DNA of 64,000 bases from Diplonema japonicum (GCA_964019335.1 OZ025681.1:248001-312000), one strand, 5' to 3'; counted from the first letter of the stretch, positions 1-47,048 are shown. Notes: generated by a model from the letters alone, not told the origin. Numbers and translations are program-made.

Positions 1-2360
1 GGTACACGTCATCCGCGTACGAAAGTGACCAAGCTCCTGGTACTTCCGTCATCACGCACTTCACCATCACCGACACCAAGGCGTTCACCATGATTACCGA
101 GATGGGGCACCCTTGCAGGATACCATTCGTCACTCGGAACTCTGAGCCAACACCTGTCGGGAAACGGAATCGCCGCTTCAGGTTCGCATACATAGCTTTC
201 AAGGGGGTCAGTATCCGCTCGTGCAAACCGAGATCTTGCATCAGGCCAAAAGCTATCTGCTGTGGGACTCTGTCGAAGCACTTGACAAAATCCAACGCAA
301 TGCCGTTGAGAGGGGTGCCTGTCAACAGCGCCTCTTCGAGCTGTGTACTGAGCTCCATCAGAATGCTATCCGTGCCTCTCTTCGGTCTGAAACCATGCTG
401 AGAGTCGTCGATCCACTTCTCTTGCCACAGCGTGATGTCACGCAGCCTCGCACATGCCCACAGCCGATAGACCGCGCTCGTGACTGTGATCGGCCGATGG
501 TTCAGAGGAGTCCTCTCGCCACCCTTCGGGATCAACGTCACCAGCGCTGTCAGGAGTGCTTTCGGCCACTTCCCTGTCGTCTCGACTGCGTTGAACAGCT
601 CGGCCCAAGCATCCAGCAGTACTACCGGCATGGCACGCAGTTCCGCCATCCTCCATCCATCCACCCCTGGAGCCGTTCTCGTTGACTTCTTGGCCAACAC
701 CGCCCTCAGATCCTCTCCTGTAAGTGGTCGAAGTTCCATCTTCTGCGACACGATGTACTCCCTGTACCTCGTTCTAAAGGCGTTGTACTGCGGCTCTCCT
801 CGATCCCCACCGTACAGCTGAAAAATAGGGTCCCACTCCTTGTGCATCATCTTGTCCATCTCTTCAAGATCTGCCGTGAGAACCCCGTCGCCTTCCACTG
901 CCTGCGTTGCTGATGCCGTTGTGCCCTTCACGAAGGCGGTCACCCTCTTCCGTTCCTCCTTGAAGTGGGTGTTGATCCTCTCTTCATACTTCCTTTCACG
1001 CTCGACCCTCGCGTCCTTTGCGATCACTCGCGCCAGAGCGGACAGGTCGTCGTCTAGGCGTTGAAGTTTGATGATAATCGTTTCAAAATTGTCCTTCATC
1101 AGACCCACCTCGCATCTCGGAAGCTGCGGGAGCTTCGCTAGCACCTTTATAGCATTCGCCCAAGTCCTCAGCAGCTGCTCCGGCATGTTGCTTGCTAGTC
1201 CCCTGTCGAGCAGATCTTGGACTCCCGCAAGGATGTGCGAGACTTTCCGCTTCACCTCGGCGATGCACTTCTGCCAGCCCACTGCCGCACCTGTCGCCTC
1301 AACCACAGATTTCGCCGACAGGCACTTCTCCTTTGGTTGTCGCGCCACGCTTCTCCCGACGTAGGCCCTCCGTCTCACCGCTGGCAGGTCCCCGATGCAG
1401 CATTCCTCCGAAACGCACGCTAACGTACTATACGCATCGTCAATGTCGCCGTCGCCCAGCTTCTGCGCAAATCCCCCGACCTGTAGCAGCTCAGCAACTC
1501 GGTCATCATCAGCAGCTTCCATCGGCAACTCCCTCGGGACGAAGTATTTCCTCGTCATGCACTTGAGGGCCGGGATCCGGAGCTGGATTGAGAGGCAGCG
1601 GTGCTCGTTGGTGTAGACTGCGTCGTGTACCCACACCTTCTGTAGGCCTGCCGCCGCGATCGGGTTCAGCAGAACGTAGTCGATACGCGTCTTCGTGTTG
1701 GTGGCCTGCCTGGCAAAGGTGTGGCATGGTTCCACGCCATCCCTCTCGGCTTGCAGCATAGCAGCATCCACCCAATCGCTCCCCACCGCCTGTTGTAGCA
1801 CTCCCGACTGTGACACCGCGGTGTTGAAATCGCCTGCCACGATGATCGGTACGTCACCGAGGACGCATCTCATCTTGTTCAGGACCTTATCCAGCAGAGC
1901 CTCCCGCTGGTGCTTGCCGTGACCGCCCGAGTGACAGTAGACTACGATCAGGTAACCACATATCTCGACCATCTAGGTTGATCATCGAGTGTACCCACCT
2001 GTTGTCGTCAGCTCTTCCTGCCGTATCTTTTACCAGAGCAGGTCGGCGTCGCTGCACCAGCAGACCCACCCCGCCCCTCTTCGCCTTATCAGGAGACGCG
2101 AGTCCATCGACCACGATGCCTGGTTGCGGGCTCCCCCACAACGCGCGATACCTACCGTCGTCCTCGACGTGTCTCCCAACCATCTCCTGACCGTGCTCCG
2201 TCAGCTTCACTTCCTGCAGGCATGTCACGTCGCTCCCCATAGCCAGGACCTCGTCAACCTTGTTGCTCAGGGACCCCACATTGAGTGTGGTGATTATGAG
2301 CGAATCGGGGTCCCTGGCGCCACCCGACTGGACGTCCCTCCGGACGTCCCAGTCCGCACT
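1..2360 (-). CDS. LINE ORF2: APE endonuclease + reverse transcriptase (partial; 1-nt insertion at ~1954)
   Basis: In frame with ORF1 directly after TGA 2363-2361. After the extra T at 1954/55 the frame appears open to the window edge and contains the RT motifs including YADD. Confidence 0.92.
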
Positions 2361-4690
2361 TCAATTGAACTCGGTGTCGATGTCCTGGACAGCCAGGGGG
2401 GCGACCATCGGGGTTAGCTGCTGCTGCACAGGTGTCCCGCCAGCTGCCGCGGCACAAAGGGGGGTGCTGTTGGGCATGATCATCGGCGTCATCTCCCTGC
2501 CTATTCCAGCGGTGGGGACAAGGGCACCTGAGGCCGCTTTCTTGTTGCCCGGCTCGTCCTCGCACTTCCTCTTCCCGCCTGTCTTCCTTGCCGCTTTCGC
2601 CTGTGCCTGCATCTCCTTTTGGATTGAGCCCACCGCCTGTGCGAGGTTGTTCACCGCAGAAGCAATCACGTCCAACTGCTCCAGACGTGCAGCCATCACT
2701 CCCATCTGCTCGCTCAGCGTTTGCACGTTCTGTTGCACGGACATCAACAGGTTGGCCGTCGACGCGTTCTTCCTCTCCATGTCGACGAGCCGGGCCTCCA
2801 TGGTCTTCCTCTCCTGTTCGTTCTCCAGTTCCATCCTTCGCGCCCATTCCACGAACTGGTCGGTGGATGCGGTACCGGAGGTCGCAGATGGCGGTGCCGA
2901 CGCCGGCGCCTGCATCACCGGTGTCGTCTGCGGTTTGTAGAAATGCGTCGACTGCCCAGACTGCTGCGCTTGCCCAGGCTGCTGTGTCTCGGTCGCTTGT
3001 GGTTGAGGTTGAACTCCCGGTTGGGGTGCTGCAGTTGGATTCGGTGCTGGCCCAGCTTGTCTTCCCCACACGGCGTTCGGCGGCAAGGTGAAGACCGGCG
3101 TGTTCTTCACCTCCTTCTTCTTCTTATTCTTGCCCACCCTCAGCAGGTCCCCTTCCATCGGCTGGATGGCCCACCTCACTCCCTGGACTGTCAACACCAA
3201 GCTCCTTGGTTCGGTCGTCGCAGTCACCACCCACGTCTGTCTGCCACTATGCCTGTGCAGCTTCTTCCTCACCGTTGCTGGCCACCCGGAACGGCTCAGC
3301 TTGCCCTCGAGCTCCAGCCCGTTCATTGCTACCGGGACTCCCTGCACCTCGTAGTGGGCACCCTCCAGCAGGTCTACGGCGGTCGCTGTTGTCTTCAGAT
3401 CTGCATGGCGGTCCTTGAGGATCTGCCTTGCGGTGTTGAGTCCGTCCTTTGGCACCCGAACGCCGTACGTGACAGTCTTGCTCGATTTTTTCAGGGTCAA
3501 ACCCCATCCGCCGATGTCATTCTTCATCTTCAGGGCAACCTTCAGAGCCGTGTTCTCCAGCCAGATCACTGGCAGCAGGTCACGCGCCTCCCAAGGCTGC
3601 CTGACGAAAACGCCGTCCTTTCCGCTGCGCGTTAGGATCGCCTTAACGTCTTCCTTCTTTACCGTGATCGGTATTTCTAAAATACCGTCCTTCTTTCTGC
3701 CCCTCTTAGCGAGGTACCTCCCTGCGCGTTCTCTCAGCCATGCCAGCAGACGCGGCCGAGCTTTCTCGGCGTCCTGCGTCGTCTGCGCCAGGAGAAAAAG
3801 CTCTGCAGTGCACGTGGGCTCAGGCTCCTTCTCCTCCGTCTCCTCCATGTCCTCGACAGTCTCGCTAGTGGGCATTGCCGGGTCGCCGTGCCTTGCCGTC
3901 ACGTACAGGCGCCTGTACGTCTTGCCACGTCCCTCGTTTGTCACCAGGAGCCCTGCGGCACCAGGTACACCGCGCGCTCTTGCACCGTCTCCGGGCCCTG
4001 CCACTCCTGCACGTGGACCTGCCACTCATCTCCATCGAGGCACCCCTCGACGGGCTTGCATACTTCTTTCTTCTCGGGCTTCGAACCACCCTTGGCCACG
4101 CTGCGTAGAGGAATGGGGTATCTCGGCCTCGGCTCATACTCATCTGCGTCCGGCTTCCTCGCTCCTTCCTCCCTGCTGAGACACACGTAGTGGTCTCTCA
4201 CATACCCTAGCCACAGCTCCTGTGTGGTCACCATCCCACCCACCGGCCTGGAGGTGGTGCACACCAGGCGATCGTCCCGGACCGCGTACACACAGATCAC
4301 GCGGCCCATGGCTCGCGCCAGGGCATTCACCGCCATCCGGTCTCCCCACGTCCCCGGAAGAGCCACCAGCCGCTGGTACTCCTTCCACGCCCCCTCCGGG
4401 TCCTCTCCAATCATGAAGGACGAGAAGTCCTTCGTCGCCAGGTCTGCCGCCACTGCCTCCCTTAGGGCAGCGGCCCCGTCTCGCGCTCCGTGCACCGCGT
4501 ATGAGGCTGCCTCATACAAGCAGTCTCCCGGCCTCCTCCCCACGTCTTGGACCTTCCAGCCCATCCCCAGCCTGCCGGCTAGGTCGCCCACCGCTTCTCC
4601 TTGCCTGGTGGATTCGCCAGACCCCCCTTTTGGAGGAGCCTGCCCAGGAACCGCCCTCGTGGAGGCTCCACCTCGGCCTTTTGGTGGCAT
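2361..4690 (-). CDS. LINE ORF1 with N-terminal OTU cysteine-protease domain, Gln/Pro linker and C-terminal coiled coil (one frameshift at ~3950)
   Basis: ATG at 4690 (MPPKGRGG). OTU motifs PGDCLYEA (Cys 4522-4520), LREAVA, GTWGD, RDHY (His 4192-4190). Joins ORF 2361..4025 if one G is restored in CAG GG(G) CTC. Confidence 0.8.
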
Positions 4691-4734
4691 TTCTTCGCGA
4701 CTTTTGATGTTAAAAACCCGAAACCCAGTGTTCC

Positions 4735-4790
4735 CTGAAAAAAAAAGGAGGGGAGAGAGAGGGAGAAAAAAAAAAATAACATGTATAGAA
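4735..4790 (-). promoter_or_regulatory. Putative trans-splice acceptor (polypyrimidine tract + AG) 45 nt upstream of the LINE ORF1 ATG
   Basis: Minus strand: tctctctcccctcc(t)ncAG|ggaacac...ATG. Confidence 0.55.
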
Positions 4791-5863: not shown

Positions 5864-6241
5864 CTAAACCACATTTTGCGCGGGAGGACCACCCTGAGGG
5901 GGAGGATAAACGTAAACGGGCTCACCAGAATTCGCCTGCTGGGTAGGCTTGTTACAGCAGCACTTGACACAGCAGAAAATACAGAGGCCGATCCCAATAC
6001 ACGTCAGCACGCTGCCCACAACAATAAAAGCGATCGAGAAACCAGTCAGCTCGCAGTCGTAGAGGGGCGACACAATGTTGCTGTTCCTCTCACAGGTACT
6101 CCAAGGGCAGATGCACTTGTACTCAGTATACACCAGTCCTTCCGACGAGAGCTCCCTGTAACAGTAGTCAAGCTGCGGGTTGGTCTCATCACACCCGGAG
6201 ACAGCAAGAACAAACAGCGACAACACAGCGATAATTTTCAT
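5864..6241 (-). CDS. Small Shisa/WBP1-like single-pass membrane protein, paralog 1 (125 aa)
   Basis: Signal peptide, Cys-rich ectodomain, TM helix, juxtamembrane CCxxCCC, Pro/Tyr tail (VYVYPPP). Confidence 0.8.
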   Translation of the reverse strand: MKIIAVLSLFVLAVSGCDETNPQLDYCYRELSSEGLVYTEYKCICPWSTCERNSNIVSPLYDCELTGFSIAFIVVGSVLTCIGIGLCIFCCVKCCCNKPTQQANSGEPVYVYPPPQGGPPAQNVV

Positions 6242-6425
6242 TTTTTCTAATATTCCTGTGTTGAACTAACGGGGTAAGATTAAGGGTGAGGGGGGAGAAA
6301 ATGAGATGTATAGAAAATAGAAACCTTCCGGTTTTTACTTGTTGTGCCCATGCCCCATTGCTACGCTCATCCTGTCTAGCTGCGAGGCTCTCCTGTCGAT
6401 GCAACAGGAAAAAAAAAAAAAAAAA

Positions 6426-8872: not shown

Positions 8873-9370
8873 CTAAGCTACACTTGGCACAGGAGGAGCC
8901 TGGGTACCACCCTGAGGGGCAGGATAGGCACCACCCTGAGGGATAGTACAGGTACCATTCTGAGGGGCAGGACAGGCACCATCCTGAGGGGGAGGATAGG
9001 CCCCACCCAGAGGGGGGGGAGGATAGGTAGAAACACCACCTTGAGTGGCAGGATAGACAACAACAGCCTCAACTGGATTGACCTGCTGGGTAGGACTGTG
9101 ACAGCAGCACCTGACGCAGCAGAAAATACAGAGGCCGATCCCAACACACGTCAGCACGCTGCCCACAACAATAAAAGCGATCGAGAAACCAGTCAGCTTG
9201 CAGTCGTAGAGGGGCGACACAGTGTTGCTGTTCCTCTCACAGGTACTCCAAGGGCAGATGCACTTGTACTCAGAAAACACCTCCCTGTAACAGTAATCGT
9301 CCTGCGGGTTGGTCTCATCACACCCGGAGACAGCAAGAACAAACAGCGACAACACAGCGATAACCTTCAT
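8873..9370 (-). CDS. Shisa/WBP1-like membrane protein, paralog 2 (165 aa)
   Basis: Start MKVIAV at 9370 by homology to paralog 1. Tail extended by 8-aa GAYP(A/P)PQG-like repeats. Confidence 0.8.
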   Translation of the reverse strand: MKVIAVLSLFVLAVSGCDETNPQDDYCYREVFSEYKCICPWSTCERNSNTVSPLYDCKLTGFSIAFIVVGSVLTCVGIGLCIFCCVRCCCHSPTQQVNPVEAVVVYPATQGGVSTYPPPPLGGAYPPPQDGACPAPQNGTCTIPQGGAYPAPQGGTQAPPVPSVA

Positions 9371-10706
9371 ATTCCTTCTTTTTCTTTTGTTCTTTGTATT
9401 CCTGTGTTGAACTAACGGGGTAAGATGAAGAGGGAGGGGGGGGGGGGGGGAAATGATGCTTCTACTTGTTGTGCCCATGCCCCATTGCTACGCTCATCCT
9501 GTCTAGCTGCGATCTCCTGTCGATGCAACACAAGGGGTTGACGCGTTCCACTGGGCCCCTGCCATCAGCATGGCTGAAGTCTTGGGGAACAGGAAACCCG
9601 CAAACCCGGGTTTGAGGTGTTGGGTAACTGGAAAAAAAAAAAGAAAAGAATGATGAAATGTGGACTCCTGGAATGCAGCCTACCTTTTCAGGTTTAGATG
9701 AGAGAAGGGGGGAGGTATGTTAAAAAACTGTTCGTATTTGAAATGTGAGAAAAAGAAATATCAACCATACAACAAAAGAACAAGAATAAAAAAAAGAAAA
9801 AAGTATACATCGGGTGTGGTGGGAGTGCTTTTCTTGTGCCTCTTCTTCCCTTTCTGATGGGGAGGAAAGTGCAGTCGCTCCGTAACAGAGAACGCCCAAG
9901 ACACTTCAGAATGCTCCCACAACTGCAACAAAGCGTTGTCATGAAAGTAGTCAGATTGCTGCGTGCTTTCGATGATTCCCTTTCTTTTTTCTTTTTTTTC
10001 CTTTGAAAAAAATAGTTGAAACCCTGTAGCTTAGCAAGAAGTGAACAGACAGGGGAACAAAAAAGAGATAGAGAAAGCTGTATTTTTATTTACTGCCAAC
10101 AAATAATGATCTTACTGTTTACCTCGAGATTTCGCATTTTCTGCCCATCCAGGGTCTTGAGGGATGGTCTATTCACTCGAGAGGTAAAGTCAATTCCTTT
10201 GGCAGTAGAGTAAAGTAGGTATAAAAAAAATGGGAGAATTTCTTCTTTTTTTTTTTCTTCTTTTTTTTTGATTCCCTTCTGATTACTGTAAAGTTGGGGG
10301 GTGTGTGGTTTATACAAAGTAACAAAAAAAAAAAAAAAAAAAAAAAACTGTTTCGATTTTAGTGGTGCCAAGCAGTATGTGACACAGCGATCCTTGTGAC
10401 ACTTCGCCCCGAAGTCCCCTGTGGTCCAAGAAAGATTTGTTCAGAACATAATCTCCTTTCCGGACTGTGCCTGGACAAGATTAAGAGATTCTACGGTAAT
10501 CAGTTGGTGAAAAAAAAAAAACTTTTAAATAAAAATAAAGAGTCGGCGAATCTTTTTGTTGTTTTGTGCAAGATTGGGTTTATCCTGCACAAGGAACAAA
10601 AAAAGAAATATATGAGTTAAAGGAAGTCGTTGATAGACGCCACTTTGTTCTCATCTTCAATAAATAATAGAAATGTATCGTTTTTTTGGATGAAGTTCTT
10701 CTTCTC

Positions 10707-11123
10707 CTAAGCTACACTTGGCACAGGAGGAGCCTGGGTACCATCCTGAGGGGGAGGATAGGCCCCACCCAGAGGGGGGGGAGGATAGGTAGAAACACCA
10801 CCTTGAGTGGCAGGATAGACAACAACAGCTTCAACAGGATTCGCCTGCTGGGTTGGACTGTTACAGCAGCACTTGACACAGCAGAAAATACAGAGGCCGA
10901 TCCCAATACACGTCAGCACGCTGCCCACAACAATAAAAGCGATCGAGAAACCAGTAATCTTGCAGTCGTAAGTGCTGCCGCTCTTCTCACAGGTACTCCA
11001 AGGGCATCTGCACGTGTACTCCGAAAACAGCTCCCTGTAACAGTAGTCATTCTGCGGGCTAGTCTCATCACACCCGGAGACAGCAAGAACAAACAGCGAC
11101 AACACAGCGATAAATCGATCCAT
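10707..11123 (-). CDS. Shisa/WBP1-like membrane protein, paralog 3 (138 aa)
   Basis: Same architecture and high similarity to paralogs 1 and 2. Confidence 0.8.
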   Translation of the reverse strand: MDRFIAVLSLFVLAVSGCDETSPQNDYCYRELFSEYTCRCPWSTCEKSGSTYDCKITGFSIAFIVVGSVLTCIGIGLCIFCCVKCCCNSPTQQANPVEAVVVYPATQGGVSTYPPPPLGGAYPPPQDGTQAPPVPSVA

Positions 11124-11323
11124 TGTTTCTTTTTTTTTCTTTTTTTTTTTTCTTCCTTTCCTCGGCTTTTCCTTTATGTTGAACTAAACACGAAATGAAA
11201 GAAAAGAGAGAAGGAAAAAAAAAAAAAAAAACAGAACTTAACTTATCTTTTCCTCCCTTTTCTTTTTTATTTTCCTCCAGCCCCCCAACTGTATCAACGT
11301 TCACAATTTCTTTGACAAGGCTC

Positions 11324-12655
11324 CTATCGCGACAGGCTTCTAAGGATGGCAGCTAGCTCATATTCCACCTTGTCCTGCAGTTGCCGCATTTGGTCCTGTT
11401 GTTGTGAGAGCTTTCCGTCGAGGTCTCTGAGGAAACCCTTCAGCTGGATCAATTTATCTTCAAGCACAGGATCCATGGAGGGGAGGACAGACCCTTTCAC
11501 GTCAAACCGAGCCCTCCTGAAGCTTTTGACGGCACCATAGATGGTGTTCCCCTTGTGCCCTTTGGGAGCAATTCTCTTGCTGTACTGTATGTAAACCGCC
11601 TCGATGAGAAGAACAGCTTTCTTGCGGTAAACCTGCAAAGCATCGCGAACGGTGAGATATTCCACCACGTAACGTTGGACCTTGGTCGGAGCAAGCTTGT
11701 TGGTTAGAACACCAGAAAATATGGTGGTGATGATAACACCGCTGATACCAAGGAGGACTGTTAACACCCTGCCAGAGATAGTTTTGGGGACAAAGTCGCC
11801 GAAACCGATTGTGGTGAATGTGATGAAGGAGAACCAAAAAACGTTTTCCAACCGCCCGAACTCGTTTCGCTGTTCGTTACGCTCCACGAGGAAAATCATG
11901 AAGCTGAACACAGCGATGACCAACGCAAAAGACACAGTGAGGACAACACCTGTTCTTGAGTAGAAAAGCATCTTTAGGGTCAGTCCCATTTTAATACGAA
12001 GATTCATGGTTTGAAACTCACGATTCGACGACACAATCTCGATCCTAAGCTTGTACGGCCGGCTGAAGGTGTGCAACATCCTCACAAATAAATACAATCT
12101 CATAAACATAGCGATCTGGCACAGCGTGAAAAACGTCCGCGAGGATTCTTGAAACACAAAAAGAGGGTGGACGACATGGACGAGAACCTCCGCAATTATG
12201 GATGTCCGCAGCCACCCGGATTTCCAAAGGGAGTAAGCTGCCTTAATGTCCCGTCTTTCTTCAAGGCTAGCATCTTCGATGTCGATTTTCGACCATTCCC
12301 GGCGTTTGTTCAGCAACAGCAATCTGTAGTACTGTATTATGAGGCAGATGGTAACGACGGTTGTGAGCGTTACTACGAGTTGCAAGCATAGCATTACGGT
12401 TTTTATTGTGGGGGAGGCAGAGTCCCACGTGGTGTCTGTGCGGAACTCGCCGGTGTACCATGTTACGCTAGCGCTTATGGCCATGGCCACGACACCTCCC
12501 ATTGAGAACATGATGATGTGCATGGTCTTGTTTCTCATTAGCTTGTCGTAAGCTTTATCTTCCCTCTCGTGGCCTGCCTTGCGTCTGAGCATCTTGCCTA
12601 CCCGGCTCAGCACTGCAACCCTCTTCGACAACGCTGGGTCTGAAATATTAGCCAT
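11324..12655 (-). CDS. Potassium channel, SK/calcium-activated-like 6TM subunit (443 aa)
   Basis: Pore helix and filter FWFSFITFTTIGFGDFVPKT, S4-like MRLYLFVRMLH, C-terminal coiled coil. Confidence 0.88.
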   Translation of the reverse strand: MANISDPALSKRVAVLSRVGKMLRRKAGHEREDKAYDKLMRNKTMHIIMFSMGGVVAMAISASVTWYTGEFRTDTTWDSASPTIKTVMLCLQLVVTLTTVVTICLIIQYYRLLLLNKRREWSKIDIEDASLEERRDIKAAYSLWKSGWLRTSIIAEVLVHVVHPLFVFQESSRTFFTLCQIAMFMRLYLFVRMLHTFSRPYKLRIEIVSSNREFQTMNLRIKMGLTLKMLFYSRTGVVLTVSFALVIAVFSFMIFLVERNEQRNEFGRLENVFWFSFITFTTIGFGDFVPKTISGRVLTVLLGISGVIITTIFSGVLTNKLAPTKVQRYVVEYLTVRDALQVYRKKAVLLIEAVYIQYSKRIAPKGHKGNTIYGAVKSFRRARFDVKGSVLPSMDPVLEDKLIQLKGFLRDLDGKLSQQQDQMRQLQDKVEYELAAILRSLSR

Positions 12656-12853
12656 TTCTTTTTTTATTTTTTTTTTTTTTATTTCTTGTTACAACCCACT
12701 GGGCGAACAATATTCTTTTTTTTTTTTTCTTTTTTGTTTAGCTTGGTCATTGTGAGCCGCCGTTTTTTTCATCCACTATCCCCTACTACGCGGTTTCTCC
12801 TTCTTGCTGGTGGTCTTGTAAATTAAAAAAAGGAAAAAAAAGAAGAAGAAGAG

Positions 12854-13241: not shown

Positions 13242-14396
13242 TTATGGGTTGATAGGTGTGGCCATAGTCCACGTCATGCCCCCATGACTTGTCGTGCCCT
13301 CCACACCATTGGTCAGAAAGATCGGCTTCCCCGTCCCATCAACGATCCACTGAGGCCTCTCACGCCTTCTGAGAGTTTCCGTGGTACCGTCAGTATAAGT
13401 GATATCGCACCAAGGGACCTGGGGGGTAGACTTCCAGTTGTACCCATCCTTGGACCACAGGTAGAGGTAGTTGCACCCGCAGTGCATAAGGATGCGGAAG
13501 GTCTTCTGTGCCTCAGAGTAGTACATCCCAGAGTCCTCGCATTCACTGGGGACCTGAAAGGGAACAGAAGGGGAAGCACGGATGTAAGGCCCAGACCAGT
13601 GCTCAGCAAAGGCCACTCCAGTCAACATAGCATTATAGTTCTCCTTGCTACGCGCCTTGTACACCATCAGGACAGAGGAGTTCGGGAATACGTGAACAGT
13701 AGGGTTGGTGACGAACTGATCATCCCACGCACCAGCGGGACCGGGGGACAAGATAGGCGTCTTAGACCTTTCCCATGGTCCATTAGGGGAGTTGGACGTT
13801 GCAAGACCTATCTGTTGGTTGCAGACAGGCTGCGAAGCAGGGTTTGAAGAGCACGTGTTGCTGCCAAGATCCTTCTCGTCGATTGTGCAGTTTTGTGACA
13901 CAGCACCTGTAGCAGTGCTTCCCATGTAGTAGAGAAGGTATGTTCCATTTGGAGCACGTGCAATGATTGGGTTGTGTTCAGTGAGCCCGTCCCATGTCGC
14001 TGTTGAAGGATGCAGCTGGCCAAGGGAGACATCATGGGGGGTGTAAGGTCCATGGACGGTGTCAGAGACAGAGTGCAGAACTTGGCTGTTTGTAAGCCAT
14101 GATTGAAGTGTGCAGTTGTTGTTCATCATGGCCCCGTACATGTGGTACTTCCCGTCGTCGCCCTTTGCCACCCCGCCGCCCCACGTTGATGTTGTGTTGA
14201 ACTGGTACGACAGGCACAGCCCGCCTTCGCCGCATTTGTAGGACGCTCCGAAGTTCACCTGCTCGCATGCTGCACCCTTGAATCCGAAATCGCATTTGCA
14301 TGTTCCTTGCACGCACAGCCCCCCACCGTTGCAATCGTCATTGGTGTTGCATCCCATGCACCACACTGCAAGGCATGCTAGAAGCAGGCACCGCAT
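13242..14396 (-). CDS. Secreted EGF-like + GH43-like (five-bladed beta-propeller) glycoside hydrolase, paralog A (384 aa)
   Basis: Signal peptide MRCLLL, EGF-like Cys pattern, WGGG..DDGKYHMY, HNP, TNP, CED, RERP motifs. Confidence 0.8.
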   Translation of the reverse strand: MRCLLLACLAVWCMGCNTNDDCNGGGLCVQGTCKCDFGFKGAACEQVNFGASYKCGEGGLCLSYQFNTTSTWGGGVAKGDDGKYHMYGAMMNNNCTLQSWLTNSQVLHSVSDTVHGPYTPHDVSLGQLHPSTATWDGLTEHNPIIARAPNGTYLLYYMGSTATGAVSQNCTIDEKDLGSNTCSSNPASQPVCNQQIGLATSNSPNGPWERSKTPILSPGPAGAWDDQFVTNPTVHVFPNSSVLMVYKARSKENYNAMLTGVAFAEHWSGPYIRASPSVPFQVPSECEDSGMYYSEAQKTFRILMHCGCNYLYLWSKDGYNWKSTPQVPWCDITYTDGTTETLRRRERPQWIVDGTGKPIFLTNGVEGTTSHGGMTWTMATPINP

Positions 14397-14576
14397 TTTA
14401 TTTGTTGGGGTTTTTAGTGACAGGTCGCTGTGGGGGTGAAGAGCGCAGCATAGCTTCACACTAAAGGGGAATGGATTAGAAGGGGCCTAAAGAGCAAGGA
14501 GTAAGGGGTAAGAAGGAAAGGGGGAAGGAATAAAGGAGGGGGAAAGATGTGCTTCCCCCCTCTAAGAAGGAAAAAT

Positions 14577-16045
14577 GAGTCGATTGATGGTTAGTTGTGC
14601 ACAGCTGGGGCTAACCTGTAGAAGGATAAGCCCAACAATGCTACCACTACTCTTTTTTTAACAATAACAATTCATTTTCAATATGTTGTTTTTCTTGTTC
14701 AAACAAAAAAAAAAAAGAGATACACTTTAAAAAAAAATATATATATGAGTTAAAGGAAGTCTTTGTGAGACGCCCCCTTGTTCTCATCCTCTACCTGCAT
14801 CCACCCCCCTTCAGCAGCGGCTTCTCCTTCTTCGGTGGTCGTGCCGGCCTCCTCCCCAGCTTGGCTACTTTTTCCCTTCTTTCCTTTGCCCATTGCTTCC
14901 CCAGCTCCTCCAGGTCGTACTTGGTCTTCGTTGATGCAAAGCTTGCTCTTCTACTCCACCCGATCACCGCCTTCGTCCCTCCGATTGATCGCAGCGTATG
15001 TACTCTCTTGCATGGTTCAGCAGGGAAAGCCTTCTTCATCACCGTGTGCAGTCTTCTGGCCTTCTGTCGCACCTCTGCCAACTCCCCTAGCTTCCCTCCA
15101 AGGGACTTCTGGGTCACGTTTTCGAAATCCAGCGCCAGCTCCACCGTCGACACTGCCGTGCTTCTGTTCCCTCCATACCAGCGCAGCTGCTTGAGCCATT
15201 TCAGCACCGGCTTCGTGTACTCCTTCAGGGTGTTGCCGGTCTGCAGCCTCGCGAACTCCTCCTCTGTTGGTGCTGGGTGTGCCTCCCCCTCCGTGATCTC
15301 CAGCCATTGGTGTGTCCGGTAGATCTGCTGCCTCTTTGCCTGCAAGGCTGCGTCGCGTTCCCCCACCACAGCCAGCAGGTAACGCTGGGTCTTCTCGAGC
15401 CTGTCCTTGTCCTCCTTGGCCGCTTCCCTAGGGAGGATGCCATGGAGCCTCATGCACGGTTCTAGGCCTGTTCGTGTCGTGCCTGCATGTGCCTCCCGTT
15501 GCCCTACTTCGACAGCCAGTTCGCACTCCCACAGTGCATGCTCCAGGATGTTGGATACCTGTTGAATCTGACCGCATATGTCGCAGCGTGCCGTTGCGGG
15601 TTCGTCCTGCTGCCTCTGCTCCGCCAGCAGCATGCGCTCCAGCTCCGCGACTTCCCCTTCTCCTCCCGCCTCTCTTTCTTCTTCGTCTTCTGAGTCGTCT
15701 CGGGAATCTTCTTCGTCCACCTCCTCCTCCGTCGGTGGGATGTGTGCCACTGCGTCCGTCCGCCATCCCCGTGGGTGGACGTAGAAAACCGCGCCTGTGA
15801 TCACCCTGCGTAGGTCCCTTGCTGCTATGGGGTCCGACGACGCCAGCTTCCCCATAGCTCGTTTGTCTCGACAGCGGCTGCCGTCGCCATTCCTTTCATG
15901 GTGCTCCGTTTTCCCATGATGGCCTCCGCTTCACCACGCCTGAGCTTGTCTCTGATGTAGTGTCGGAACGCTCCTTCTCCATGGCCATGGTGTCCTTCAG
16001 CTGGTCCCAGGCCACCACTTGGAGGTTCCCCAGCCATGATTGATT
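14577..16045 (-). mobile_element. 5'-truncated LINE (family 2): C-terminal ORF2 with CxxC..H..C finger plus ~215-nt 3' tail
   Basis: ORFs 15825..16082 and 14791..15855 joined by a frameshift at ~15860. CDIC..HALWEC. C-terminal domain shared with the fragments at 38.6 kb and 63.5 kb. The tail recurs elsewhere in the window. Confidence 0.78.
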
Positions 16046-21097: not shown

Positions 21098-22246
21098 TTA
21101 CAGAATCTCTGTAAGCATAGTCCAGGTCCGCCCGCCATGGCTGGGACCCTGCACACCATTGGTCAGAAAGATCGGCTTCCCCGTCCCATCAACGATCCAC
21201 TGAGGCCTCTCACGCCTTCCGAGAGTTTCCGTGGTACCGTCAGTATAAGTGATATCGCACCAAGGGACCTGGGGGGTAGACTTCCAGTTGTACCCATCCT
21301 TGGACCACAGGTAGAGGTAGTTGCACCCGCAGTGCATAAGGATGCGGAAGGTCTTCTGTGCCTCAGAGTAGTACATCCCAGAGTCCTCACAGTTGTTGGC
21401 AACATTGAACGGGATAGAGGGAACCGCGCGTTCATAAGGCCCGGACCAGTGCTCAGCAAAGGCCACACCTGTAAGAACAGCTGAAAAGTTCTGCTTCCCT
21501 CTTGCCTTGTACACCATCAGGGCTGAGGAGTTCGGGAAGACGTACACAGTGGGGTTCGTTACATACAAGTCATCCCACTCACCAGCGGGACCAGGACCCA
21601 AGGCAGGTTTAGAAGAACGTTTCCAAGGCCCGTAAGGGGAGTTGGACGTTGCAAGGCCTACCCTCTGCATGCAGAGAGACTGCGACTCCGGATCATTCGT
21701 GCACTGGTTGGCAAGCTCCTCATCATCAGGCTTTGTACAGTTGGGTGACGATGCTCCCGTAGCAGTGCTTCCCATGTAGTAGATGAGGTATGTTCCGTTT
21801 GGAGCACGAATGACTGTTGGGTTGTGTTCAGTGAGTCCGTCCCAGTTAGAAGTTGGGGGATGCAGCTGGCCAAGGGAGACATCATGGGGGGTGTAAGGTC
21901 CATGGACGGTGTCAGAGACAGAGTGCAGAACTTGGCTGTTTGACAGCCATGTTCCAAGTGTGCAGTTGTTGTTCATCATGGCCCCGTACATGTGGTACTT
22001 CCCGTCGTCGCCCTTTGCCACCCCGCCGCCCCACGTTGATGTTGTGTTGAACTGGTACGACAGGCACAGCCCGCCTTCGCCGCATTTGTAGGACGCTCCG
22101 AAGTTCACCTGCTCGCATGCTGCACCCTTGAATCCGGAATCGCATTTGCATGTTCCTTGCACGCACAGCCCCCCACCGTTGCAATCGTCATTGGTGTTGC
22201 ATCCCATGCACCACACTGCAAGGCATGCTAGAAGCAGGCACCGCAT
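21098..22246 (-). CDS. Secreted EGF-like + GH43-like glycoside hydrolase, paralog B (382 aa)
   Basis: Paralog of 13242..14396 (offset 7850) with the same motifs. Confidence 0.8.
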   Translation of the reverse strand: MRCLLLACLAVWCMGCNTNDDCNGGGLCVQGTCKCDSGFKGAACEQVNFGASYKCGEGGLCLSYQFNTTSTWGGGVAKGDDGKYHMYGAMMNNNCTLGTWLSNSQVLHSVSDTVHGPYTPHDVSLGQLHPPTSNWDGLTEHNPTVIRAPNGTYLIYYMGSTATGASSPNCTKPDDEELANQCTNDPESQSLCMQRVGLATSNSPYGPWKRSSKPALGPGPAGEWDDLYVTNPTVYVFPNSSALMVYKARGKQNFSAVLTGVAFAEHWSGPYERAVPSIPFNVANNCEDSGMYYSEAQKTFRILMHCGCNYLYLWSKDGYNWKSTPQVPWCDITYTDGTTETLGRRERPQWIVDGTGKPIFLTNGVQGPSHGGRTWTMLTEIL

Positions 22247-22663
22247 TTTCTTTTGTTGGGGTTTTTCTTTTTTTTTTTCTTTCTTTTTTTTCTTTTCTTT
22301 AATGGGGTGGCGGTGTGAAATATGGGATGACAATAAACCAGGAGAAAAAGAAAAAAGAAAAAAAAACGAAGACTTTTGTTTTTTCTTTGTTGGCTAGAAG
22401 GGACTGGAATAAATTATAAGGAGGGAAAGGAATTCCTTTTTTTTTTTGCCGTTCTTATTACACTGAGACTTTGTTTGAGCGGAATTTTACCTAATAAAAT
22501 AGCTCATTACGCTGCCATCAACTAGTTTTTAGTCTCGACAATAATATTGTTAAAACAAAAAAAGGACTAAGAAGTCGAAGAAAGATTGAAATGTTCAAAA
22601 AGAAAAAGAACACCTACAAAAGAAATGGTAGAAGTTTGTAAAGAGCGCCCCAGAAAGGTAAAT

Positions 22664-32710: not shown

Positions 32711-35700
32711 TCACACCCGCGCAAACTCCTGCGGAGCCTGCATCTCGTTCCCCTCCAGGGCGTGGATGAACTCATTCACGTTGATCTCCTCCTTCTGCTT
32801 GCTGCATGCGAAGAAGGCGCACGCCCCGCCAAGGCCCAACACGCCCAAGGCAACGAGGAGCCAGACCCACCAAGGGATCCCGCTGCTGCCGTCGTCGTCC
32901 TCTTCCTCCGGCTCCAGCGCGGTGCCCCCCTTCACGCACACCCCTTTCCTGTCGCACGCCCCTTCCACTCCGTCCAGCACGCAGCGTGCCCCTTCCCCCA
33001 ACCCGTCGCACCCAACATCCGGTGCCGGTGTCATCGCGTTCCCCACCCCGGGTTCCGCCGTCTCAGGGGCCCGTGTCGCGGTAGGGGACGCAGTCGGAGT
33101 CGAGGTGGGGACAGCTGTTGTCCCAGGGACAAGGGTGGCCGGTGCTCCTGTTTCGGGTGCCTGTGTCGGGGTCGCTGTAGGGACAGCCGTCGTCCCAGGG
33201 ACAAGGGTGGCGGGTGCCCCTGTGTTCGGTGCCGAGGTCGGAGTCGAGGTGGGGACAGCCGTTGTCCCGGGTACAAGGGTGGCCGGTGCCCCCGTTTCGG
33301 GTGCCTGTGTCGGGGTCGCTGTGGGAACGGCTGACTGTCCAGGGACAAGGGTCGCAGGAGCCCCCGTGGGCCCAGCGGTGGGGGTCGCTGTGGATGGGGC
33401 CTGCGTGGGAGCCGCTGTCGGCGATGCCGTGTCCCCGGGAGACAGTGTCGTCGGTGTCTTCGTGACAGGTGATCCGCTCGGGACACCCGTCGGGCCTGCC
33501 GTGTCGGGGGAGGTTGTGGGCGTCGCGGTCGGGACCGCCGTGTCCCCAGGTGACAGGGTGGCCGGGACCTCTGTCTTTGGTGCGCCCGTCGGCTCTGCTG
33601 TGGGTGTCAAGGTTGGCGTCCCGGTCGGGATCGCCGTGTCAGGGGCCGTCGTGGGGACAGCCGTCGGCTCCGCCGTCTTCCCGGGAACCAAGGTGGTTGG
33701 CGCATCGGTCACAGGTGCCCCCGTCGGCTCTGCTGTCGGTGTTGCGGTCGGAACTGCCGTGCTTGGCGCCGAGGTGGGGGTTGCTGTCGGGACCGCCGTG
33801 TCGGGTGCTGTTGTGGGGACAGCCGTCGGCTCCGCCGTCTTCCCGGGAACCAAGGTGGTTGGCGCATCGGTCGCAGGTGCCCCCGTCGGCTCTGCTGTCG
33901 GTGTTGCGGTCGGTACTGCCGTGCTTGGCGCCGAGGTGGGGGTCGCTGTCGGGACCGCCGTGCTTGGTGCTGAGGTGGGGGTCGCTGTCGGGACTGCCGT
34001 GTTGGGTGCTGTTGTGGGGACAGCCGTCGGGGCTGTCGTGTCAGGTGCTGTTGTAGGGACAGCTGTTGGCTCCGCCGTGTCAGGTGCCGTTGTGGGGACA
34101 GCGGTCGGTTCTGCCGTCTTTCCAGGGGACAGGGTGTCGGGTGCCGTTGTGGAAGGCGCACCTGTCGGGACAGCGGTTGCAGGTGCCGTGGTCGCAGGTA
34201 CCCCGGTGTCAGGTGCCGTCGTTGGGACAGCCGTTGGCCCCGCAGTGTCGGGAGCGTTCGTCGGGGATGCGGTGGGGACCGTCGTGTCGGGGGAGCTGGT
34301 GGGGATGGCCGTGGGAGCAGCTGTGCTTGGAGCGCCGGTAGGCATGGCCGTGGGAGCAACGGTGTCTGGGGCACCTGTTGGCATGGCAGTGGGGACAGCT
34401 GTGACTGGAGAACCAGTGGGAATGCCTGTCGGAGCAGCTGTGTCCGGAGCGTTGGTGGGAACAGCTGTTGGTACAGTAGTATCAGGAGCGGGTGTTTCAG
34501 GTGCAGGCGTGTCAGGGGCTGGCGATGTTGGGCAGCCATCGGTCCACGCAGGAATCTTGTGTGTGACAGAACAGAAGCCATCACCGTTAGCCGTGCACGA
34601 GGCTTGAACGGTAATCGTCCAATCACGATCCACGTCATAAACCCACGTGTTGCTCCTTTCGTACCTTTCCATGTCCGACATGCTGGCACTCTTCTTCAGC
34701 ATCATATAAAAGTTTTCCCCGTCAAAGAAGTACTTCGTGTGAGGGTTCGCCCACAGGTCCGCAAGGTCAGTCGCCAGAGTATACGTCATGGCAAGTGGGG
34801 TGTTCCACCTGTGTGCGCCAGTCACTGTGAACGTGGTCCCGCTGGGATAAGTGGCCGCGAATCGCAGTGGTGCTCCATTCGGGACTTGCGAAGGATTCAA
34901 GGTGAGGTGCTTTGCGGCACCACCGTCGAGAGCAAGGAACCAACCGGTCCCTGTGATTCCTGTGATGCCCGCATTCTGTGTGATTGGAGTCGAGCGCAGG
35001 GCGTCACCATGGTCAGGACCGTGGCCCCACAGAGCGATGTACCCAACATCGCACGCGCTCCAATCTGGGTTCGTTTTGGGGTTGCACACACCAGCTTCTT
35101 TGATTCCACCTTTCGATGCCGCGATGTCAGGAGTGAGGAGCTTGATAAAGGCGACCTCTCTCTCCGGGAAGCCAGCAGGCTTCTTCGGGCACAGCCACGT
35201 CATCCACAAAGACTCAAAGCGGCAGTCGTCGCACACATTCCACCAGTCCTTGTTCGAACCGAGGATGGTAGGGCGGCCCTCTCCAGTCGCAGATCCGTCG
35301 AAGTCGATGAAGTTGAAGAAGCGAGAAGCACCGTTTTCAGCAACCTTGAAGCTCACGTACTGGCTGGGGTCCACGTTCGTGTACTTTATGTTGTTCACTG
35401 CACTGATCTGCTGCGGTTTGAACTCGTCGGAGTGGAACGGCCCAGACCAGATAATATTGTTATGTGCTGAGTTGCTGGCGCCGTCGGAAGTGTTGTATGA
35501 ACAAAGCTTGTCGTCTTGCTTCCAATTAGTCTTTCCGGGAATAACAGTGTATCTGCAGATCCCTTTTTGGTAGTTGCGGAACTCTGTGTCCGTGATGACA
35601 GATTTGACAGAGATGTCGTAGAACTGGAAGCCGTCGTGGTGCAGGTCCGCCATCCCGATCTCGTCGTTCCCACTCACTCCGTTCACGATCGCATTCCCTA

Positions 35701-37990
35701 GCCACGCCTCGCCGAAGAGTGTAACAGACCTCGAGATGTCGTGGAACTCGATGGTGTCAATGTCTACCCTGTTCCCCCAATGGAGCAGTCCTTTGTTGCA
35801 GGCGTACACCAAGGTGTTCTCAAATTTCATCCACATATTTGTACTCTTCCAGTCAACAAGACCAGGCTCCTTCTCCAAGCGCGTGCTCCTGGCTGCCCTT
35901 CCGGACATGTACTTCAGATTCGGTCCATCATACGAAAGCTCACCACCGACATAAATGCACCCACCAGCACTCCAGTAGGCCCCAGACGAGTGTGCTGTAT
36001 TGCCGTAGAAACGTTTGAAGGGTCGGCTTTGTGGTTCGATCGTTGTGTCAGACTGGAACTCTCCAATGGGTTTCTTAAGGCCGGGGAAGCCAAAGCCAGA
36101 CCAACCACCAGAGGCCACGTTGCCAATAATTTCGTTGTGGGCGTTGGAAAAGTAGAATCCAGCTGCGGATGCGTCTGCCGGCTGGATGCGCTGACCAGAG
36201 GTGAGACCCCCAGCCCCAACATCCTGGTTCACAACCTCACCACTTTGCCCACCGCCAGCGGCAGCCGCACCAATTGGCTTCACATAAGCAGCAAGGTTGT
36301 AGCTCACAGTGTTGTTCTCCTCGACCCCGTCCTCCACGTAGAAGCAGTTGCCTGTGGCGTTGAAGGCTACGTTCTCTGTCTCCAGGACCTCGTGGGTCCC
36401 GTGGATCACGAAGCACCTGAAGTACGTGTCCCTCGCCACGTTGTCAGAGAAGAAGGACCCCGACCCTGCCCCGAGGAGATGGAAGTGGAACGGGTAGCGT
36501 GCCATCGTGTTGGTCTGCCCCATGTAGCGGGTCGCCACACCGGCGAAGCGCCCACGAGACCCTGCGACGATGGTGTGGCCCCCGTACCCCTCTGCGTCGG
36601 GAACCCCCTCCATCATCACGTGCCTGCTGAGGAGCCCGACCTCCCCTTGGTACTCGGTCCCTGCGTAGTGGGCGTACTGCAGCGGTGACTCGAACTGAAT
36701 CAGCATCCCGTCGGGGCTCACAGCCTTGATCGTCATCACCTCGTTCTGGTTGGGCTGCCCGACATCTGTGTCGTCCCAGATCGTCGTCGTCAGCACCACC
36801 TCCTGCCCAGGGTACCAGTTCACCGACTGCTGCAGGTAGGCCCTGTCATCCCCTGCCCGCGCCTTCCTCGCAAGCCGTGCCCACGTCGGGTAGAAGCGCC
36901 TCCCGAACATGTCGATCTCCCCGCTCCCCACAGCAGCCATCCCCTTGCTCCCGTAGGTCTCCAGGTGAGATGCGGGGTCCCCCTTCGTCCCCCAGAAGGT
37001 GATCTTCACGGGGCCCTCCACCCTGCAGGTCGGGGCGCCGATCCGAAGCTTTCCCTTCACCAAGAGGGCCCGTACCTGCAGCGAGATCTCCTCGTCCTTG
37101 AAGATGAGCTCAGAGGTGTCGGGGATCTCAATCTTGTCGTACTGCCCCACGAAGGAATCCTTCCCGACCACCACCTTCGTGTTTCCAGGGATTGTCAGGG
37201 ACCCGGTGGCCGCCCCGAACTGTGCCTCCCAGGTCACGAGCCCAGGCTCCGTCCAAGGGCAGGCCGTTTGCGAGGTGAGCTCTGCAGCAGGCGGCGCAGG
37301 TGGCTGCACCATCACGAACTTCTCGCTGAAGGAAGGGAGCGTGGGGGGAGCGGCCTTCGACTCAGCGTTCCTGTTCAAGCAAAAGTCCGTGAACGAGAAG
37401 TGCGTCTCCTTTGTCGGGCGCGCTGAGAGGTAGAACCGCACCCAGATCGACGAGGCCGCATTGTCGAAGTTCACCTGCGACGTCCATGTCTGCTCGTAGC
37501 GGAACCACCCACTCCCGATGTCTGTCTTGGTGAAGGGTGTCTCCACCCCGCCGATCACGTTCTCCGGCTTATCCTGTGTGTAGTTCGTCGGCCAGATTGT
37601 GTCCTTCGTGTAGGTGGTCTCCATCCCCTGCTTGAAGAGGACAAGCTGCGGCTCGAATGCGAGGTTCGGGTCCTCCTCCCCGGACAGCTTCATGTCGAAG
37701 GTGATGGAGTACGACATGCCCTTCTTGAAAGTGGGGACGGTCGCCGTGTACTTCAGGTACATGTACCAGTCCCCCCAGGCACGGATGGTGAAGGTGCTCA
37801 TCGTGGAGTTGACCTCCTGCTTGTTCCCCCCTGCAACCCATTCGCTCCCTCCTTGAATGGGGGTGTACTCACGGCCGCATGTGGACTCTGCAGCGATGGC
37901 GATCGTCGCTGGGATCGCGGGGCTTGGGGGTGTGGGGAACTGTGCAGCCGCGGAGGCAGCAAGCAGCACCGCCGCAAGAAGGCGGAACAT
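32711..37990 (-). CDS. G8-domain / parallel beta-helix surface protein (fibrocystin-L/TMEM2-like) with Thr/Pro stalk and C-terminal TM, paralog A (~1759 aa)
   Basis: Signal peptide MFRLLAA, G8 (LLVKGKLRIGAPTC..ITFWG), ARYPFHFH, CFVIHGT, mucin repeats, TM WWVWLLVALGVL. Confidence 0.88.
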   Translation of the reverse strand: MFRLLAAVLLAASAAAQFPTPPSPAIPATIAIAAESTCGREYTPIQGGSEWVAGGNKQEVNSTMSTFTIRAWGDWYMYLKYTATVPTFKKGMSYSITFDMKLSGEEDPNLAFEPQLVLFKQGMETTYTKDTIWPTNYTQDKPENVIGGVETPFTKTDIGSGWFRYEQTWTSQVNFDNAASSIWVRFYLSARPTKETHFSFTDFCLNRNAESKAAPPTLPSFSEKFVMVQPPAPPAAELTSQTACPWTEPGLVTWEAQFGAATGSLTIPGNTKVVVGKDSFVGQYDKIEIPDTSELIFKDEEISLQVRALLVKGKLRIGAPTCRVEGPVKITFWGTKGDPASHLETYGSKGMAAVGSGEIDMFGRRFYPTWARLARKARAGDDRAYLQQSVNWYPGQEVVLTTTIWDDTDVGQPNQNEVMTIKAVSPDGMLIQFESPLQYAHYAGTEYQGEVGLLSRHVMMEGVPDAEGYGGHTIVAGSRGRFAGVATRYMGQTNTMARYPFHFHLLGAGSGSFFSDNVARDTYFRCFVIHGTHEVLETENVAFNATGNCFYVEDGVEENNTVSYNLAAYVKPIGAAAAGGGQSGEVVNQDVGAGGLTSGQRIQPADASAAGFYFSNAHNEIIGNVASGGWSGFGFPGLKKPIGEFQSDTTIEPQSRPFKRFYGNTAHSSGAYWSAGGCIYVGGELSYDGPNLKYMSGRAARSTRLEKEPGLVDWKSTNMWMKFENTLVYACNKGLLHWGNRVDIDTIEFHDISRSVTLFGEAWLGNAIVNGVSGNDEIGMADLHHDGFQFYDISVKSVITDTEFRNYQKGICRYTVIPGKTNWKQDDKLCSYNTSDGASNSAHNNIIWSGPFHSDEFKPQQISAVNNIKYTNVDPSQYVSFKVAENGASRFFNFIDFDGSATGEGRPTILGSNKDWWNVCDDCRFESLWMTWLCPKKPAGFPEREVAFIKLLTPDIAASKGGIKEAGVCNPKTNPDWSACDVGYIALWGHGPDHGDALRSTPITQNAGITGITGTGWFLALDGGAAKHLTLNPSQVPNGAPLRFAATYPSGTTFTVTGAHRWNTPLAMTYTLATDLADLWANPHTKYFFDGENFYMMLKKSASMSDMERYERSNTWVYDVDRDWTITVQASCTANGDGFCSVTHKIPAWTDGCPTSPAPDTPAPETPAPDTTVPTAVPTNAPDTAAPTGIPTGSPVTAVPTAMPTGAPDTVAPTAMPTGAPSTAAPTAIPTSSPDTTVPTASPTNAPDTAGPTAVPTTAPDTGVPATTAPATAVPTGAPSTTAPDTLSPGKTAEPTAVPTTAPDTAEPTAVPTTAPDTTAPTAVPTTAPNTAVPTATPTSAPSTAVPTATPTSAPSTAVPTATPTAEPTGAPATDAPTTLVPGKTAEPTAVPTTAPDTAVPTATPTSAPSTAVPTATPTAEPTGAPVTDAPTTLVPGKTAEPTAVPTTAPDTAIPTGTPTLTPTAEPTGAPKTEVPATLSPGDTAVPTATPTTSPDTAGPTGVPSGSPVTKTPTTLSPGDTASPTAAPTQAPSTATPTAGPTGAPATLVPGQSAVPTATPTQAPETGAPATLVPGTTAVPTSTPTSAPNTGAPATLVPGTTAVPTATPTQAPETGAPATLVPGTTAVPTSTPTASPTATRAPETAEPGVGNAMTPAPDVGCDGLGEGARCVLDGVEGACDRKGVCVKGGTALEPEEEDDDGSSGIPWWVWLLVALGVLGLGGACAFFACSKQKEEINVNEFIHALEGNEMQAPQEFARV

Positions 37991-46930: not shown

Positions 46931-47048
46931 GTGTGTGCAACGGTGGAATCTGTGAGGAGTGAAGTAAACAGGAAGAAGGGAAAAAAAGAATATGCAGACG
47001 ACGTATGACGAATGGGTTGATATGATGGTTTAAATATGACCACTATGA

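Follow-up and report, generated by a model that had tools for sequence, protein, structure and literature searches.

An OTU cysteine-protease domain leads the first open reading frame of a non-LTR retrotransposon family in Diplonema japonicum

A 64,000-nucleotide stretch of the Diplonema japonicum genome (GCA_964019335.1 OZ025681.1:248001-312000; hereafter, the window) carries on its minus strand a retrotransposon without long terminal repeats (non-LTR), that is, a long interspersed nuclear element (LINE). We found that this copy is a deletion-damaged member of a family, encoding an apurinic (APE)-type endonuclease and a reverse transcriptase (RT), whose intact copies are predicted to fuse an OTU cysteine-protease domain to the product of the first open reading frame (ORF1). 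A first-pass annotation had put the OTU domain at the head of ORF1. This arrangement is borne out for the family, by contigs and by the proteins P0007 and P0008, and not for the window copy itself, in which a 100-base deletion breaks the frame. The suggestion in the same annotation that the domain protects the element from ubiquitin-mediated turnover stands as the best reading, and a reasonably probable one. The layout of the element is as follows.

4735..4760, minus strand: polypyrimidine tract ending in AG (4736-4735), 44 bases 5' of the ORF1 ATG, read from the sequence
3951..4690, minus strand: N-terminal part of ORF1, 246 codons, comprising a leader rich in G and P, the OTU domain and the first part of a linker
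4187..4528, minus strand: OTU cysteine-protease domain (Pfam PF02338, invariant residues, PDB profile matches)
3950..3951, minus strand: site of the 100-base deletion of the window copy (contig joints, loose ends, gap in the P0007 alignment)
3144..3950, minus strand: ORF1 core, predicted tandem RRM-like domains (AlphaFold2 model, Foldseek, VIA)
2364..3143, minus strand: C-terminal part of ORF1, with a Q/P/A-rich linker, a likely coiled coil (~2978-2604) and a basic low-complexity tail
2361..2363, minus strand: single TGA separating ORF1 from the in-frame ORF2 (sequence and contigs)
2326..2354, minus strand: 12-pair hairpin, a candidate recoding signal (predicted fold)
1..2360, minus strand: ORF2, APE-type endonuclease and RT, running off the window edge

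On sequence grounds, membership of the domain in the OTU family is real and well beyond chance. The motifs noticed earlier are all located on the minus strand: G55-D56-C57 at 4528-4520, W115-G116-D117 at 4348-4340 and D166-H167-Y168 at 4195-4187 (numbered from the ATG at 4690), with Cys57 at 4522-4520 and His167 at 4192-4190. The hidden Markov model search that the annotation had proposed matched Pfam OTU (PF02338) with 32.3 bits against a cut-off of 23.3 (E 1.6e-7). This cut-off is also passed by the related proteins P0006, P0008, P0026, P0043 and P0044, with P0007 (17.9) and P0053 (21.4) falling below it. Six residues (G55, C57, R77, Y105, G116 and H167) are invariant in all eight aligned sequences, which are 26-35% identical to the window OTU, and the retention of Cys and His at such low identity points to selection for catalysis. 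A profile of eight sequences, comprising the window OTU, six ORF1-type relatives and P0021, retrieved 20 PDB sequences at E<=0.01, every one of them named as an OTU protein, a ubiquitin thioesterase or a viral RNA polymerase construct. The best matches, ranging from 1.9e-18 to 3.7e-9, were human OTUD5 (twice; top 1.9e-18), OTUD1 and OTUD3; the viral polymerase constructs, which at 170-219 residues we take to be the OTU domains of those polymerases, matched far more weakly (2.9e-5 at best). An AlphaFold2 single-sequence model of the OTU domain alone was too poor for use (mean pLDDT, the predicted local distance difference test score, 43.9).

How the OTU domain is joined to the rest of ORF1 is revealed by comparison of the window with other copies. 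In the window, the frame opening at the ATG at 4690 runs for 249 codons and terminates at a TGA (3943-3941), and the remainder of ORF1 (4025-2361) lies in a different phase. We compared the element with contigs from seven distinct sequencing runs (X1, X3, X6, X10-X13); those of X11 lack coverage of the OTU domain and the deletion site, and those of X10 are fragmented, with nothing there among the contigs listed. In X1, X3 and X6, contigs carry 100 letters between 3950 and 3951 that are absent from the window, and in X1 and X3 the contig bearing them makes up essentially all the depth of its bin. A loose end at 3950 is present in X6, X12 and X13, and its 30 letters are, by eye, open in the frame of the core. 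The alignment of the D. japonicum protein P0007 spans both window pieces and is interrupted precisely at 3950 by a gap of 36 residues. Since the 740 bases from the ATG plus these 100 amount to 280 codons, the OTU domain is in the same frame as the ORF1 core; in the window copy the deletion shifts this frame into the stop at 3943-3941 and thereby cuts the OTU domain off from the core. The window allele is either a rare defective copy or an assembly error, two possibilities that are not separable because contigs drop rare variants. Element contigs in X1 have a depth of ~180, compared with 15-18 in the listed shallow records, a figure that is not a copy number. No RNA record was listed for the stretch, a negative that is neutral as to expression. 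Elsewhere in the OTU region (4391-4700), one contig joint skips 4392-4636.

ORF2 is damaged as well. The endonuclease lies directly in frame 3' of the ORF1 TGA, and the RT follows after a further shift at ~1951, where all four runs of the first contig comparison have two extra bases that join both ORF2 halves. Split by this 2-base loss, Exo_endo_phos is below the Pfam cut-off in each half, with RVT_1 matching at 8.7e-13; both are above the cut-off in P0058, which is 74-82% identical to the window ORF2. An endonuclease followed by RVT_1 identifies the element, as far as its sequence can be read, as an APE-type non-LTR retrotransposon. At the other end, the polypyrimidine tract at 4735..4760 looks like a spliced-leader trans-splice acceptor and lies near the apparent 5' edge of the element. 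The deep X1 contig stops at 4735 and an X6 contig tracks the window to 4746 and then diverges.

Relatives provide a second line of evidence for the fusion. Word-indexed homologue searches with the OTU frame returned no relative at near or longer lengths; an exhaustive HMMER search returned 42 proteins at E<=0.001, headed by P0006 and P0007, both from the D. japonicum transcriptome, and by P0008, from a D. papillatum cluster of 11. The OTU domain and the core occur in a single chain in P0007 (core E 1e-28), P0008 (core E 1e-10), P0043 and P0044, and P0026 combines the OTU domain with part of the core. From the shared core and the multicopy cluster we infer that P0007, P0008, P0026, P0043 and P0044 are LINE ORF1s. 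D. japonicum is also the source of the nearest ORF2s, with 85% and 77% across the RT region. In the D. papillatum models P0094, P0096 and P0097, the core, endonuclease and RT are in one frame, with no OTU match in the modelled part. Some relatives are extended N-terminally of the OTU domain. In P0053 (~1-190) and P0044 (~1-215) these extensions resemble, by eye, a degenerate RNase H; they have no Pfam match, and their best pairwise E-value against the RNase H of P0111 is 0.0017. Residues 9-66 of P0043, before the OTU domain, form a weak ubiquitin-like domain (E 8.6e-4, below the cut-off), possibly through a gene-model fusion with a host gene.

Together, these data bear on a counter-explanation that the annotation itself had named, chance adjacency to a host gene; the OTU frame would be a host gene or gene fragment beside a 5'-truncated LINE. 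In the window, the OTU frame indeed begins with an ATG and ends with a stop of its own, and a trans-splice-like signal lies upstream of it. However, the deep contigs of three runs link it to the core across the 100-base insert, and proteins of both D. japonicum and D. papillatum hold the two parts in one chain, which rules out chance adjacency. Unless the contigs were all misassembled alike, their joints and the P0007 alignment refute this explanation, and we consider it exceedingly unlikely.

The annotation had further described ORF1 as capsid-like. We modeled the core (3950-3144) with AlphaFold2 from an 11-row alignment (mean pLDDT 74.2) and obtained an alpha/beta pattern with 12 strands, in which two RRM-like units of the ferredoxin fold (~3821-3591 and 3374-3147) flank a smaller alpha/beta unit. 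Foldseek at E<=0.001 matched the model exclusively to the multi-RRM proteins Prp24 and Raver1 (10 of 10 matches), the whole-chain TM-scores being low, ~0.2. The two best VIA matches are likewise RRM domains (Z 8.2 and 8.1, root-mean-square deviation 2.4, over 75 and 71 residues), and the first RRM-like unit matches other ferredoxin-like folds about equally. An all-helical capsid (CA) fold was rejected for the core, which is predicted to be alpha/beta, the 260 C-terminal residues of ORF1 lying outside the model; among the fold matches listed by Foldseek and VIA for the core there is no capsid protein. The retrovirus-like design proposed for the element thus falls together with its capsid term. 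Instead, the predicted model has the RRM fold, so that ORF1 is, on this model, a variant of the RRM-plus-coiled-coil ORF1 of LINEs, and its core likely binds RNA. The C-terminal part has a weak Pfam ATG16 match, below the cut-off, which we read only as coiled-coil likeness, and ESM Atlas scores for the remainder of ORF1 (0.83 or less) are a lead at most.

At the junction of ORF1 and ORF2, the annotation had seen readthrough. The single in-frame TGA (2361-2363) is indeed kept in other copies: it could be scored in two contigs, X1 record 4 (2162-2892; one differing letter, at 2676) and X12 record 10 (2243-2519; zero differing letters), the others crossing it carrying unlisted differences. Readthrough itself is plausible, with AUG-independent or otherwise unconventional reinitiation as the alternative, and both fit the facts. 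ORF2 has no in-frame ATG before codon 41 (2240), which lies past the first motif of the endonuclease, hence the proposal of either readthrough or non-AUG reinitiation. The hairpin at 2326-2354 begins 6 bases 3' of the TGA and recurs in each of the three folds (z -1.05, -1.42 and -2.44). Its 3' arm contains a TCG codon (2327-2325) at the site of the start Met of ORF2 in P0058, the closest relative; residue 2 of P0058 aligns to 2324, and P0125 has its start Met one codon earlier than P0058. The nearest ORF2s begin with their own Met, and the TCG is kept in X1, X10 and X12 contigs. Unconventional reinitiation has precedents in SART1, where it goes with a downstream structure, and in L1 (PMC5972666). 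For low-level production of ORF2, we slightly prefer readthrough of the TGA over non-AUG reinitiation. The wider clade offers another example of an ORF2 without AUG, in a different family represented by the metagenome loci L011 (685-687) and L001 (97-99), where the reading frame continues past a TGA through a stretch lacking ATG and then a 2A-like motif into the endonuclease; both loci are incomplete at the 5' end. In addition, the same runs contain sister-subfamily contigs that match the endonuclease no further than 2325, the start-codon position of the relatives, and rejoin 682 letters later (window 2200-2325 and 3050-3092).

The OTU domain is not confined to ORF1. Among 67 long proteins related through their RT, six have an OTU domain, or part thereof, directly before the endonuclease at the start of the RT protein. 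In Pfam searches three of these six are above the OTU cut-off and one is just under it; the partial P0084 has no match and P0085 was outside the scan. P0084 and P0085, both gene models without the Cys segment, have identical RT regions, so that the six proteins represent five families. A 2A-like NPGP/HPGP motif occurs within the first 900 residues in 15 of the 67. Where proteins of this clade are separated, the clade thus appears, from such motifs, to use other means, either the 2A-like motif or a start Met of its own. A first metagenome scan found no relative. The RT tree, built from search hits alone without reference elements and assessed solely by the Shimodaira–Hasegawa-like approximate likelihood ratio test (SH-aLRT), included the window and 65 of the 67 relatives, two having been dropped for short matches. 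In it, the OTU-bearing rows are scattered over four separate places, all outside the three-member group that contains the window. The OTU tree, of 45 rows, unites the ORF1-type domains with P0092 and P0021 (support 87) and the other four RT-type domains with one another (95); P0092, whose OTU domain is on an RT protein, joins the ORF1-type domains with SH-aLRT 84-87. The free OTU tree thus puts the element OTUs in two groups, and a single origin for 11 element OTUs is not rejected by the approximately unbiased test, for which 5 of the 45 rows were dropped (p-AU 0.32). Although weak, the two trees show that the OTU domain is a recurring accessory of the clade, not a one-off capture.

What might such an accessory do? 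We propose, as a moderately probable reading, that the OTU domain acts as a deubiquitinase that protects the proteins of the element itself, and most of all the scarce endonuclease-RT, from ubiquitin-driven turnover. Using its RRM-like domains, the ORF1 protein (ORF1p) would coat the RNA of the element in many copies, and it would oligomerize via the coiled coil, with one OTU domain per copy. Many OTU domains would thereby be brought beside an endonuclease-RT made at a low level, by TGA readthrough or non-AUG reinitiation. There they could strip ubiquitin from ORF1p, from the ORF2 protein (ORF2p) or from the ribosome-bound nascent chain, as the OTU domain of turnip yellow mosaic virus (TYMV) does for its polymerase, which it rescues from degradation (PMC5695851). 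A comparable role, disruption of protein degradation, has been proposed for the Josephin domain of Dualen (PMC8557442). A protective role fits better than that of a site-specific cutter, since the module sits on either protein of the ribonucleoprotein.

Several observations weigh against the proposed fusion or its function. Just 30 of the 100 missing bases were seen, so a stop in the other 70 is possible for the host of the window, and no DNA context was seen for P0007, P0008, P0026, P0043 and P0044. Sixty-one of the 67 RT proteins have no OTU domain in that ORF, their ORF1s not having been seen, and none of the 12 metagenome loci of a second scan has an OTU match, most of these being 5'-truncated contigs. 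None of the six OTU-endonuclease-RT proteins has a 2A-like motif, which implies that they remain fused or cut themselves. The active site is also pared down. In the usual, though not universal, OTU pattern an Asp or Asn stands two residues after the His and an Asp three residues before the Cys. Here, His+2 is Val, with no Asp or Asn at that position in any of the nine ORF1-type rows, and Cys-3 is Pro. A third catalytic residue is not required for OTU membership, as TYMV PRO, an active OTU, also lacks one. The missing residues might nevertheless suggest an OTU passenger with weak or no catalysis, one that binds ubiquitin or serves a structural role and is kept for non-enzymatic reasons. It would fit such an idle state that P0007, below the Pfam cut-off, lacks part of the Trp-Gly-Asp segment. 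The same holds for one X13 contig (loose end at 2592), which seems to be a derivative without the OTU domain and most of ORF1, its letters resembling window 4560-4590 by eye. Yet the Cys and His invariant in eight of eight sequences at 26-35% identity make this very unlikely.

The same pared-down site leans toward another explanation, because TYMV PRO, which lacks the third catalytic residue too, combines deubiquitinase activity with polyprotein processing (PMC3968130). The OTU domain might accordingly process proteins, either as its only activity or besides removing ubiquitin, like tymovirus PRO and arterivirus PLP2, freeing itself from ORF1p or the endonuclease-RT from the readthrough product. 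Readthrough would yield a long fusion that might need cutting, and the six OTU-endonuclease-RT proteins without a 2A-like motif and the 15 others with one look as if the two were alternatives. A Gly-Gly stands just before the endonuclease in the window element and in P0084/P0085; however, it is also found there in P0058, where it directly follows the start Met and needs no cut. A conserved Gly-Gly cleavage site after the OTU domain was tried and rejected, such a pair being present in 5 of 12 element domains against 3.8 expected. Moreover, P0094/P0096/P0097 join core, endonuclease and RT without an OTU match in the modelled part, and the best solved relatives are cellular deubiquitinases. LINE ORF1p and ORF2p are, to our knowledge, not normally processed. 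A viral OTU, that of Crimean-Congo haemorrhagic fever virus, is described as showing no autoprocessing (PMC3968130). With an OTU heading the RT protein in 6 of 67 relatives and a 2A-like motif in 15 others, an accessory deubiquitinase is likelier than a processing protease. For the annotation's other suggestion, that the OTU domain processes the polyprotein, there is no positive evidence, and we regard it as a rather unlikely alternative.

An active deubiquitinase could also be aimed at the host: at ubiquitinated chromatin, at DNA-repair factors at the insertion site or at silencing factors. Bao et al. proposed that the OTU and Ulp1 domains of Ginger1 take part in DNA-repair signalling (PMC2836005), and D. 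papillatum has RNA interference and DNA methylation genes (PMC10161547). In the 6 of 67 relatives, the OTU domain adjoins the endonuclease, which acts on target DNA. The OTU domain of ORF1, however, is linked to a predicted RNA-coating protein, not to the endonuclease, and no targeting motif was found. Host targets in place of self-protection are a minor possibility; present data do not separate the two, and both may hold. A more elaborate scenario is that the ORF1-borne OTU domain, complete before the ribosome meets the TGA and hairpin, disarms ubiquitin-dependent ribosome quality control, rescues the paused ribosome or nascent chain and so licenses the AUG-less RT, with the module changing its place, on ORF1 or on ORF2, as lineages exchange one mode (readthrough, 2A skipping, ordinary initiation) for another. 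We consider it quite unlikely. Viral OTU rescue of protein loss linked to 2A stalling is cited in bioRxiv 10.64898/2026.06.17.732966.

Elsewhere in the window, 3' fragments of related LINE families lie on the minus strand at 14791-15930 (matched by P0058 residues 1046-1330 at 36%), 38719-39416 and 63475-63997, with no OTU or RT within the window. Also on the minus strand, three tandem paralogues (5864-6265, 8873-9487 and 10707-11183) each encode a small protein rich in cysteine, which starts with a signal-like sequence and has a hydrophobic segment and a proline-rich tail whose length differs between copies. Host genes on that strand include a potassium-channel-like protein (Ion_trans_2; 11324-12688), a duplicated EGF-domain protein (13242-14486 and 21101-22393) and two large paralogues with low-complexity repeats (32714-38113 and 41021-47029).

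If our proposal is true, an ORF1 protein that coats RNA can also edit ubiquitin, and it becomes testable whether LINEs are restricted by ubiquitin-mediated turnover. The clade offers a natural comparison for this within one protist group, with the OTU domain on ORF1, on the RT protein or absent from the RT protein. A practical result is that a set of D. papillatum 'hypothetical proteins' can be annotated as likely retrotransposon ORF1s; for the roughly 2500 retroelement gene models of that genome, curation was deferred (~2500; PMC10161547). Deubiquitinase-type domains recur in unrelated transposons (Ginger1, Helitrons and Dualen), for which the papers cited here propose roles without reporting tests.

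An OTU domain on a LINE is less new than the annotation stated, as a 2026 preprint mentions, in one sentence, a Symbiodinium necroappetens LINE ORF2p with an N-terminal OTU domain (bioRxiv 10.64898/2026.06.17.732966). A term search of a trypanosomatid mobilome survey gave no mention of OTU or protease (PMC12278014). We found no published description of an OTU domain on a LINE ORF1, which is weak evidence of novelty as subscription papers and Repbase were mostly outside the search. What may be new, then, is the placement on a LINE ORF1; OTU or deubiquitinase-type accessory domains are known from Ginger1, Helitrons, Dualen and the one Symbiodinium ORF2p.

Dualen elements have one long ORF with two endonucleases. 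Dualen/RandI resembles the window element in being non-LTR and in having a cysteine protease of the deubiquitinase type, for which disruption of protein degradation has been proposed (PMC8557442), but that protease is Josephin-like, not OTU, and the window element has a separate, predicted RRM-type ORF1. The Symbiodinium ORF2p shares the OTU domain on a non-LTR endonuclease-RT protein, and it is listed among 2A-like-bearing proteins, its authors tying such domains to ribosome stalling and protein loss. It differs in that its OTU domain is on ORF2p, whereas here the domain heads a predicted RRM-type ORF1 ending in TGA and recurs across diplonemid families. Ginger1 transposases and Helitron/Helentron RepHel proteins likewise have a PF02338 OTU as an accessory domain (PMC2836005, PMC6431247), in agreement with the annotation's mention of OTU in some Helitrons; these, however, are DNA transposons, in which the domain is fused to the transposase or RepHel protein. 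The viral OTUs, nairovirus L-OTU and TYMV PRO/DUB, offer a parallel as parasite-encoded OTUs tied to replication proteins (PMC3968130, PMC3744425, PMC5695851), yet the window OTU profile is far closer to cellular OTUD5, OTUD1 and OTUD3, and no processing site was found in the window element. Finally, the L1 ORF1p consists of a coiled coil, an RRM and a C-terminal domain (bioRxiv 10.64898/2026.06.17.732966). Our element has the same ingredients of RRM-like domains and a likely coiled coil upstream of an endonuclease-RT ORF, in a different arrangement: at least two predicted RRM-like units precede the coiled coil, with a protease domain at the N-terminus.

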